Positions 38,612 to 38,890 of a stretch of 64,000 nucleotides of DNA are shown piece after piece. The notes beneath the pieces were generated by a model that saw only the letters and a list, made by a program, of their open reading frames with translations, did not search any database and was not told the origin of the DNA. The DNA is from Actinomycetota bacterium (GTDB taxonomy: Bacteria > Actinomycetota > UBA4738 > JACQTL01), in contig JBJMLO010000028.1 of the NCBI GenBank assembly GCA_045805265.1, forward strand, positions 447 through 64,446, read 5' to 3'. How positions within the stretch are numbered: position 1 is the first letter of the stretch; every line of letters begins with the position of its first letter. Position numbers and translations under genes: made by a program.

Positions 38612-38786
38612 CTCCTCCTGTCGTCCGGTGGTGCCTGTCGATCGTGCCGTTCGGGGTGGACATCTCCGGTGTCCGGGGCTTCGGGGGTGAGGGGTCCGCG
38701 TCCCGGGATCCCGGAAAGCGAACGGCCCCTCGCGTCTGCGAAGGGCCTCTGGCGCGGCAACAGGGCGTGCGAGCCCTGCCCCGCGC

Positions 38787-38849
38787 CTAGGTAATAAGTA
38801 CGAGGACGTCGACGGGGGCGAAGCTCGAGCAGTCTCTGCGAGTCCTCAT
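38787..38849 (-). CDS. candidate branched-chain amino acid leader peptide (20 aa, MRTRRDCSSFAPVDVLVLIT)
   Basis: ATG 4-5 nt downstream of the predicted TSS (leaderless); C-terminal run Val-Asp-Val-Leu-Val-Leu-Ile-Thr encoded with rare A/T-ending codons GTA, CTT, ATT in a 70%+ GC genome; followed by GC-hairpins and a U-containing tract. Confidence 0.45.
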   Translation of the reverse strand: MRTRRDCSSFAPVDVLVLIT

Positions 38850-38860
38850 GGTGGAAACGG

Positions 38861-38890
38861 ATGATACGTGGTCCTCAGAGGCCCGGTCAA
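38861..38890 (-). promoter_or_regulatory. candidate promoter TTGACC-18-TATCAT for the ilv-leu supraoperon
   Basis: On the minus strand: ggggTTGACCgggcctctgaggaccacgTATCATccgtttccaccATG; good -35/-10 with 18-nt spacer. Confidence 0.4.

Follow-up and report, generated by a model that had tools for sequence, protein, structure and literature searches.

How can a ribosome that pauses on a short leader peptide keep RNA polymerase from stopping at an intrinsic terminator if no antiterminator helix can be found? The question is raised by a locus of an Actinomycetota bacterium (contig JBJMLO010000028.1 of assembly GCA_045805265.1), of which we analyzed a stretch of 64,000 nucleotides (nt), hereafter the window. 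Its minus strand carries an operon with the gene order [small orphan gene]-ilvBNC-leuACDB-cimA, and upstream of the small gene lie a promoter, a short open reading frame (ORF) and two hairpins, which we call H1 and T. We consider it very probable that this element is a branched-chain amino acid (BCAA)-responsive leader-peptide attenuator of the operon. The initial annotation of this DNA had read it as an attenuator of an ilv-leu operon, built on a leaderless leader peptide with rare BCAA codons, and this core reading is supported by (i) conservation in 80 of 80 related loci, (ii) an intrinsic terminator and (iii) an analogue in Mycobacterium tuberculosis.

The leader ORF, its promoter and their conservation

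The 5′ part of the element consists of the following features.

38885..38890, minus strand: −35 hexamer TTGACC (consensus scan; an equivalent TTGAC[ACG] is present in 76/81 loci)
38861..38866, minus strand: −10 hexamer TATCAT, separated from the −35 hexamer by an 18-nt spacer and ending 11 nt before the ATG (scan)
38787..38849, minus strand: leader ORF of 20 codons plus TAG, MRTRRDCSSFAPVDVLVLIT*, with the ATG at 38849 and the TAG at 38789-38787 (sequence; homologous ORFs in relatives)
38793..38804, minus strand: sensor codons CTC GTA CTT ATT, encoding Leu-Val-Leu-Ile (codon counts over 81 sequences)
38790-38792, minus strand: variable spacer codon ACC between the Ile codon and the TAG (sequence)

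The promoter, TTGACC-18-TATCAT, is the sole promoter-like site found by the scan between positions 38100 and 39100, with 10/12 matches where shuffles expect 0.0. The scan and the sequence itself thus bear out the promoter and the 20-codon ATG ORF at the positions that the initial annotation had given. Judging from the promoter geometry, the start site is predicted to leave a 5′ untranslated region (UTR) of about 4-5 nt, which would make the leader effectively leaderless. Three of the sensor codons are as rare as had been claimed: among the 6481 codons of 12 window genes, GTA accounts for 0.8% of Val, CTT for 1.6% of Leu and ATT for 1.3% of Ile codons. The product of these frequencies is about 2e-6, and three such codons in a row are therefore not a matter of chance.

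Relatives were collected with the small orphan protein as bait, which makes the sample (80 loci from species-representative genomes, with 81 sequences for codon counts) independent of the RNA. A short ATG ORF of 15-21 codons is present in all 80 loci, 100-235 nt upstream of the small gene, and ends in L-V-L-I-X-stop (V-L-L-I in three loci). The alignment thus shows that the short ORF and its run of BCAA codons are conserved throughout, including at synonymous positions: among the 81 sequences we counted CTC 73, GTA 76, CTT 80 and TAG 81 times, and ATT 62 against ATC 19 times, which gives the consensus CTC GTA CTT ATY NNN TAG. The spacer codon ahead of the stop is unconstrained, and neither the sequence nor the length of the N-terminal part is constant. 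The in-frame ATG of the relatives lies 24-48 nt upstream of the sensor motif, and of all ATGs within 60 nt upstream of the motif 115 are in frame, compared with 10 and 4 in the other two frames. The promoter accompanies the ORF: TTGAC[ACG], a spacer of 16-18 nt and NANNNT were found in 76/81 sequences, with the −10 element ending 7-13 nt (mode 9) before the ATG. This geometry, with a 5′ UTR of 0-5 nt, predicts a leaderless or nearly leaderless message in the relatives, and no Shine-Dalgarno sequence was found ahead of the leader ATG in the family loci.

Within the ORF, a pairing is possible between the 5′ segment AUGAGGAC and GUCCUCGU, which lies at the sensor codons (window 38802-38849, minus strand; −14.9 kcal/mol, compared with −9.1 kcal/mol for shuffled sequences). 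This helix, H0, in which GAGGAC of the 5′ part of the ORF meets GUCCUCG at the sensor codons, occurs in the window and in part of the family. We rejected it as a defining part of the element on account of its modest score across the family (z = −0.74 overall).

Hairpins H1 and T

Beyond the ORF, two hairpins and a U-rich tail follow in close succession.

38751..38787, minus strand: hairpin H1, 37 nt, −29.1 kcal/mol (folding, z = −4.1; inner-stem covariation)
38724..38747, minus strand: terminator hairpin T, GGCCCUUCGC-AGAC-GCGAGGGGCC, 10 base pairs, −21.5 kcal/mol (z = −3.5), 3 nt past H1 (scan, folding, covariation)
38713..38723, minus strand: U-rich tail GUUCGCUUUCC, degenerate in the window genome (sequence; U6-7 in most relatives)

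The first base pair of H1 uses the G of the leader stop codon. The terminator scan returned GGCCCTTCGC-AGAC-GCGAGGGGCC followed by GTTCGCTTTC, at 38747-38724, as the sole terminator-like site between 38100 and 39100, scoring above shuffles, and so confirmed the GC-rich, terminator-like hairpin of the initial annotation. The region 38713-38804 as a whole has a folding energy of −52.5 kcal/mol, against −36.0 kcal/mol for shuffles (z = −4.96).

Both hairpins lie 3′ of the leader ORF throughout the family, with H1 measuring 33-40 nt and T beginning 0-5 nt after it. The outer stem of H1, GGCGCGG/CCGCGCC, is invariant, and its inner stem and T covary: changes on both sides occur in 4/5 pairs of the H1 inner helix and in 5/7 modelled pairs of T. 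In the covariation alignment 96% of cells are paired, compared with 30-58% when the partners are slid, ten pairs are changed on both sides, and 0/500 shuffles reach the values observed for H1 and T. A covariance model built on 54 sequences recovers the window (85.5 bits) and all loci searched. An Rfam cmscan of positions 28000-42000 at E values up to 10 gave three chance-level matches elsewhere and none in the leader region; in particular, it gave no match to the families linked to ilvB (among them ilvB-OMG, the ppGpp/ykkC-type riboswitch, T-box and Leu leader).

Past the U tract, most family members carry a C-rich stretch, CUACCCC or GUACCCC (38700-38712 of the window, minus strand), the M. 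tuberculosis counterpart of which is CUUGUCC. This stretch may, after read-through, form pairs with the G-rich 3′ arm of T.

Mechanism and rival explanations

The closest known system is the leader of M. tuberculosis ilvB1, which has an upstream ORF (uORF) with LVVI codons, yields a leader RNA terminated at about 120 nt and is no longer induced when LVVI is replaced by AAAA (PMC13236596, 2026). In the published model, a hairpin forms when the ribosome stalls and is masked once the ribosome reaches the stop codon; this hairpin, which follows the sensor codons, acts as an anti-terminator, and stalling on such codons gives read-through (PMC13236596). In the locus that we fetched, the uORF reads ...ATG CTC GTA GTA ATT GGT CGG CGC GTT GGT GCC TGA, and the hairpin CGCGTTGGTGC...GCACCAACGCG begins 6 nt past ATT and stops one base short of the terminator CCCTCG...CGAGGGTTTTTT. 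It resembles the window element in several points: (i) the uORF is, here by prediction, at or next to the 5′ end, (ii) there are four sensor codons, CUC GUA GUA AUU there and CUC GUA CUU AUU here, (iii) the foot of a stable hairpin lies 6 nt (here 5 nt) past the last of them, (iv) an intrinsic terminator follows 0-1 nt (here 0-5 nt) past the hairpin, with a U tract and then a C-rich stretch, and (v) the leader RNA, predicted for the window, measures about 120-135 nt across both systems. When the M. tuberculosis leader is folded in ViennaRNA with a ribosome on GUA, hairpin and terminator coexist and abut, as they do in the window family.

The two also differ. In M. tuberculosis, the 5′ arm of the hairpin is made up of six further codons after the sensors (GRRVGA), and UGA serves as the stop, whereas in the window family a single codon follows the sensors, the stop is always UAG and provides the first base pair, and the hairpin has an unrelated sequence (the GGCGCGG clamp). 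The M. tuberculosis attenuator stands directly before ilvB1, while here the small orphan gene is inserted. The relation in sequence is weak; the family covariance model finds the M. tuberculosis and M. kansasii leaders as the best matches in their loci (15.5-15.7 bits, E ~0.02; 15.5 bits for M. tuberculosis ilvB1). The window element is the same kind of device as the M. tuberculosis ilvB1 attenuator, in a compressed form. Because its uORF is not continued into the 5′ arm of the hairpin (a GRRVGA or GKRVG tail), we file it as a variant.

For the window element we propose the following model. Transcription would start a few bases before the ATG, and a ribosome would load at the 5′ end without a Shine-Dalgarno sequence. 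It would translate the 20-codon peptide ending in Leu-Val-Leu-Ile-X, of which the rare GUA, CUU and AUU codons would be sensitive to the supply of charged tRNA. The stop codon would present the ribosome with the foot of the very stable H1, with the intrinsic terminator T 3 nt further on. With BCAA-tRNAs plentiful, the ribosome would reach the spacer and stop codons, where it must open the invariant GC foot of H1, and polymerase would terminate at T, freeing a leader RNA of about 135 nt. With Leu, Val or Ile in short supply, the ribosome would stall on any of the four sensor codons; its entry site would touch H1 and leave it closed, and polymerase would pass T into the operon.

The spacing fits this scheme. 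The first pair of H1 is 5 nt past the end of the last sensor codon. If a helix can stay closed from about +11 of the P site, as is established for the ribosomal helicase site, a ribosome awaiting Leu, Val, Leu or Ile would leave H1 closed, and one on the spacer or stop codon would open 2-5 of the 7 invariant pairs. We infer from the M. tuberculosis relative and from this fit of the geometry that closed H1 corresponds to the read-through state. How it would act on T is a guess: either closed H1 or the parked ribosome may hinder completion of the T stem within polymerase, kinetically or sterically, through the abutting helix. What is conserved is the geometry, with no base-pairing switch.

Several points weigh against attenuation at this locus. 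The source organism is uncultured and the element is known there from sequence alone, and the window genome has a poor U tract, GUUCGCUUUCC. In Streptomyces coelicolor, replacing codons of the ilvB leader is reported to have left regulation unchanged (Craster 1999, as cited in PMC1262725). The element has a conserved ORF start, frame and stop, a run of BCAA codons and an intrinsic terminator before the first structural gene, as expected of a leader-peptide attenuator; what was not found is an antiterminator structure that would rule out the terminator by claiming some of its bases. When the 81 sequences were folded with a ribosome modelled as a constraint on each of the last six codons, no antiterminator appeared, the median pairing probability of T was 0.97-0.98, and forbidding the 3′ arm of T cost 14-17 kcal/mol in every ribosome state. 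Duplex energies were compared with those of shuffles for about 150 unique sequences, covering b:d, a:c and b:c, pairing of the outer arms with T, and pairing of c with the ORF's 5′ part. The arms of H1 (z = −3.2) and those of T (z = −3.5) pair well with each other, whereas cross pairings between an H1 arm and a T arm are no better than in shuffles (z −0.1 to +0.6), and the 5′ part of the leader ORF does not pair with T. Masking the foot of H1 lengthens the single strand before T from about 1 to only 3-4 nt in minimum-free-energy structures. The idea of a sterically longer linker is thus unsupported by these structures (1 to 3-4 nt), and we keep it as speculation.

H1 and T form together in every thermodynamic model and, on this evidence, are not mutually exclusive by base pairing. 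The initial annotation had supposed that they could form terminator and antiterminator alternatives; the folding check that it called for does not sustain this, for both coexist and no conserved competing pairing was found. As the validated M. tuberculosis leader folds in the same way, however, the lack of an alternative structure refutes the classical explanation only, not attenuation as such, and a shared-base antiterminator may not be a defining feature of the actinobacterial ilvB type.

The classical explanation, in which stalling induces an antiterminator helix that shares bases with T as in the enterobacterial trp, leu and his leaders, would require that we had missed this helix, for example as a pseudoknot or a kinetically trapped fold. 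It is the usual description of leader-peptide attenuators, the M. tuberculosis leader has been described as two mutually exclusive folds (PMC13236596), and Corynebacterium ilvB-II has been modelled with an antiterminator between the P1 loop and P2a. The sensor codons are indeed weakly complementary to the 3′ arm of T (−10.8 against −8.3 kcal/mol, z ~ −1), but we rejected this pairing as the mechanism because its logic would run the wrong way round. Neither constraint folding nor the duplex comparison yields such a helix, however, and cross pairings are if anything depleted; the arms of T covary with each other, and their complementarity to either arm of H1 is no better than shuffled. ViennaRNA moreover shows both hairpins together in the M. 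tuberculosis leader too. We therefore regard a hidden antiterminator as unlikely.

An attenuator without competing helices might instead work through a trans-acting factor on H1 (a protein, possibly the small orphan protein, or uncharged tRNA) that decides termination and is displaced or admitted by the ribosome. The outer stem of H1 is invariant on both strands beyond what pairing alone needs, the same stem recurs in a second element upstream of gltB, and the small protein, one of whose invariant motifs is rich in Arg, accompanies the element at almost every locus; even so, we hold such a factor to be rather improbable. Least of all do we expect the element to be a stand-alone small RNA gene running from the promoter to T, or a DNA operator for a protein, rather than a translated sensor, with the operon read from elsewhere. 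Conservation at the nucleotide level, including synonymous sites, could be read in this way, and a strong promoter with a strong terminator about 135 nt on is the anatomy of a small RNA gene too. However, the in-frame ATG, invariant stop, variable N-terminal part and free spacer codon are a signature of translation, and the ATT/ATC wobble at Ile is codon-like. The scan found no other promoter-like site between T and the small gene, no Rfam match up to E 10 was obtained, and the position before ilvB is constant. The BCAA-responsive leader-peptide attenuator remains our preferred explanation.

The enterobacterial leu, ilvBN and ilvGMEDA leaders, known from the work of Yanofsky, Calvo and Umbarger, share with the proposed attenuator a ribosome that gauges charged tRNA at tandem control codons, some of them rare (such as the rare CUA Leu codons of the Salmonella leu leader), and decides termination in the leader. 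Unlike the window element, they have a Shine-Dalgarno sequence, 28-32 codons and overlapping protector, preemptor and terminator helices.

Among actinobacteria, a study of 2005 predicted that ilvB of Corynebacterium, Mycobacterium and Streptomyces is preceded by a leader peptide and a terminator, and called the 'mode of regulation not clear' (PMC1262725). Differential RNA sequencing of S. lividans shows that the message for Streptomyces IlvL, MRTRILVLGKRVG, is leaderless (PMC8079986). In common with the window element it has a leaderless transcript (predicted for the window), a peptide that starts MRTR, an I-L-V-L run, and hairpins with a U-rich stretch before ilvB; it differs in having five codons after the BCAA run, the comparison being one of peptide and description rather than of nucleotide sequence. 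Corynebacterium ilvB-II is a uORF motif (PMC10272879), and read-through at C. glutamicum ilvBNC depends on amino-acid supply and leader translation (as cited in PMC10272879). This leader also has an I/L/V-rich uORF and two stem-loops, the second a terminator, with regulation by medium richness in a reporter (PMC10272879), but its uORF spans most of the first stem-loop. The antiterminator proposed for ilvB-II joins a loop to the terminator; the analogous pairing here, of the H1 loop and 3′ arm with the 3′ arm of T, does not outscore shuffled sequence (z = −0.08). The polycysteine leaderless short ORFs of mycobacteria form, as is proposed for the window element, a sensory leaderless first cistron in which a stalled ribosome alters downstream expression; in contrast to the window element, they act on translation by unmasking a ribosome-binding site (bioRxiv 10.1101/834739). 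The window element instead has a canonical terminator between ORF and genes, and its spacer to the next Shine-Dalgarno sequence is not conserved.

A second element, the distribution of the family and the operon genes

The family model also matches the plus strand of the window at 40440-40546 (22.3 bits, E 0.004); this second match falls within an element with these parts.

40365-40370 and 40387-40392, plus strand: promoter hexamers TTGACT and TATACT, with a 16-nt spacer and 11 nt to the ATG (sequence)
40404-40457, plus strand: putative leaderless uORF, MRDRSRNSGNDSSVRAI* (sequence)
40458-40488, plus strand: hairpin GCGCGG...CCGCGC, abutting the uORF stop, −24.2 kcal/mol (folding)
40365-40527, plus strand: the whole element, including a terminator-like hairpin of −20.6 kcal/mol with a weak U tail (folding)

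This element lies upstream of gltB, the GTG of which is at 40557. It is kept in the four closest relatives (L001-L004) with a conserved GTA CGA GCN NNN TAG, in which the rare codons GTA CGA occupy the positions three and four codons before the stop, and it appears attenuator-like. The same hairpin architecture with different codons at gltB suggests that the hairpin chassis is reused with other codons. A far-reaching version of this idea, which we put forward tentatively and rather doubt, holds that a leaderless uORF, a GC hairpin footed on the stop codon and a terminator next to it make up a generic attenuator chassis that takes different sensor codons (ilv-leu, gltB) and needs no competing pairing: a closed hairpin held by a parked ribosome would block the terminator kinetically or sterically, a ribosome two codons further on would open the hairpin and license termination, the same would hold for M. 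tuberculosis ilvB1, and the orphan protein of 100 amino acids would join acetolactate synthase as a new partner or regulator.

Scanning metagenomes for the DNA motif GTACTTATYNNNTAGGCGCG gave 120 loci. The small gene lies downstream of it in 94, and 77 of the 94 also have ilvB. The remainder comprise one locus with a divergent small protein (L127), six chance matches and others that end too near the motif to show what follows. In two loci, leader, H1 and T stand directly before ilvB without the small gene (L115:3115-3215, minus strand, and L138:660-756, plus strand, the latter from a lower-GC organism); the RNA element is therefore older or more widespread than the small gene. An orphan copy of leader, H1 and T (L083:3808-3914), without ilv genes in its surroundings, precedes an ATP synthase operon by about 800 nt.

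The operon itself has the following gene model.

38168..38605, minus strand: small orphan gene, first cistron, 145 amino acids from ATG 38605 (G+C content at third codon positions (GC3), homologues)
36402..38168, minus strand: ilvB, acetolactate synthase large subunit, 588 amino acids (Pfam TPP_enzyme_N, _M and _C; start by GC3 switch and homology)
28492..36405, minus strand: rest of the operon (Pfam, for members other than leuC)
35860-36405, minus strand: ilvN (Pfam)
34795-35841, minus strand: ilvC (Pfam)
33228-34811, minus strand: leuA (Pfam)
~31275-33230, minus strand: leuC/D region
30170-31315, minus strand: leuB (Pfam)
28492-30195, minus strand: second LeuA/CimA-like gene (Pfam)

The initial annotation had taken ilvB to be the gene about 240 nt downstream of the leader; GC3 and homology place the small orphan gene there instead. 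GC3 is 0.87-1.00 in the frame of the small gene from about 38635 to 38186 and passes to the ilvB frame no earlier than about 38185, and homology to IlvB begins at 38168, so that the ilvB start lies 681 nt after the leader ATG. On the same grounds we rejected the ORF 36402-38663 as an N-terminally extended IlvB. The ilvB frame stays open far 5′ of its true start (36402-38786, minus strand; ATG 38663), and gene callers could report a 753-amino-acid IlvB that overlaps the small gene. For the small gene itself, a start at ATG 38611 (a 147-codon ORF, 38611-38168) is possible, but 38605, where the homologues start, is more likely. Its TGA overlaps the ATG of ilvB (TGATG). In 78 of the 80 loci the next gene after the small one is ilvB, and the two usually overlap as ATGA or TGATG; the small gene is translationally coupled to ilvB.

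The small protein has 390 homologues in uncultured Actinomycetota, present in 209 species-representative genomes, and consists of a core of about 100 amino acids, with an invariant WEGPGQV and a second invariant, Arg-rich motif, and a variable low-complexity tail. Sequence searches of Pfam, NCBIfam and the PDB gave no relative above threshold, nor was a Pfam domain found in any of the 390 homologues; the N-terminal helix of Mrr_cat fell below the cut-off (E 0.03). A profile search of 1.84 billion proteins returned 75 cluster representatives, mostly stand-alone proteins of about 100 amino acids. The structural model (predicted local distance difference test, pLDDT, 70.5) has the order beta-beta-beta-alpha-beta-alpha-beta, and no informative structural neighbour of it was found, so that these searches assigned the protein to no family, fold or function. 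Upstream of the element on the same strand, a 283-amino-acid ORF (39037-39888, minus strand) has a stop-to-stop GC3 of 0.86 and no Pfam or NCBIfam match.

The leader-peptide control of ilvB in actinobacteria has passed from a prediction in 2005 through contradictory results in Streptomyces to a validation in M. tuberculosis only in 2026, where the ilvB1 attenuator matters for the fitness of rifampicin-resistant strains. The corrected gene model of the window operon exposes an unstudied small protein in tight coupling with IlvB across a large clade of soil Actinomycetota that are uncultured. The family described here amounts to about 200 natural variants of a minimal switch in which the geometry is fixed and almost all else is variable. 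These variants show that the textbook explanation by competing helices does not hold for this family, and they make directly testable the question of how a stalled ribosome prevents intrinsic termination without an antiterminator helix.

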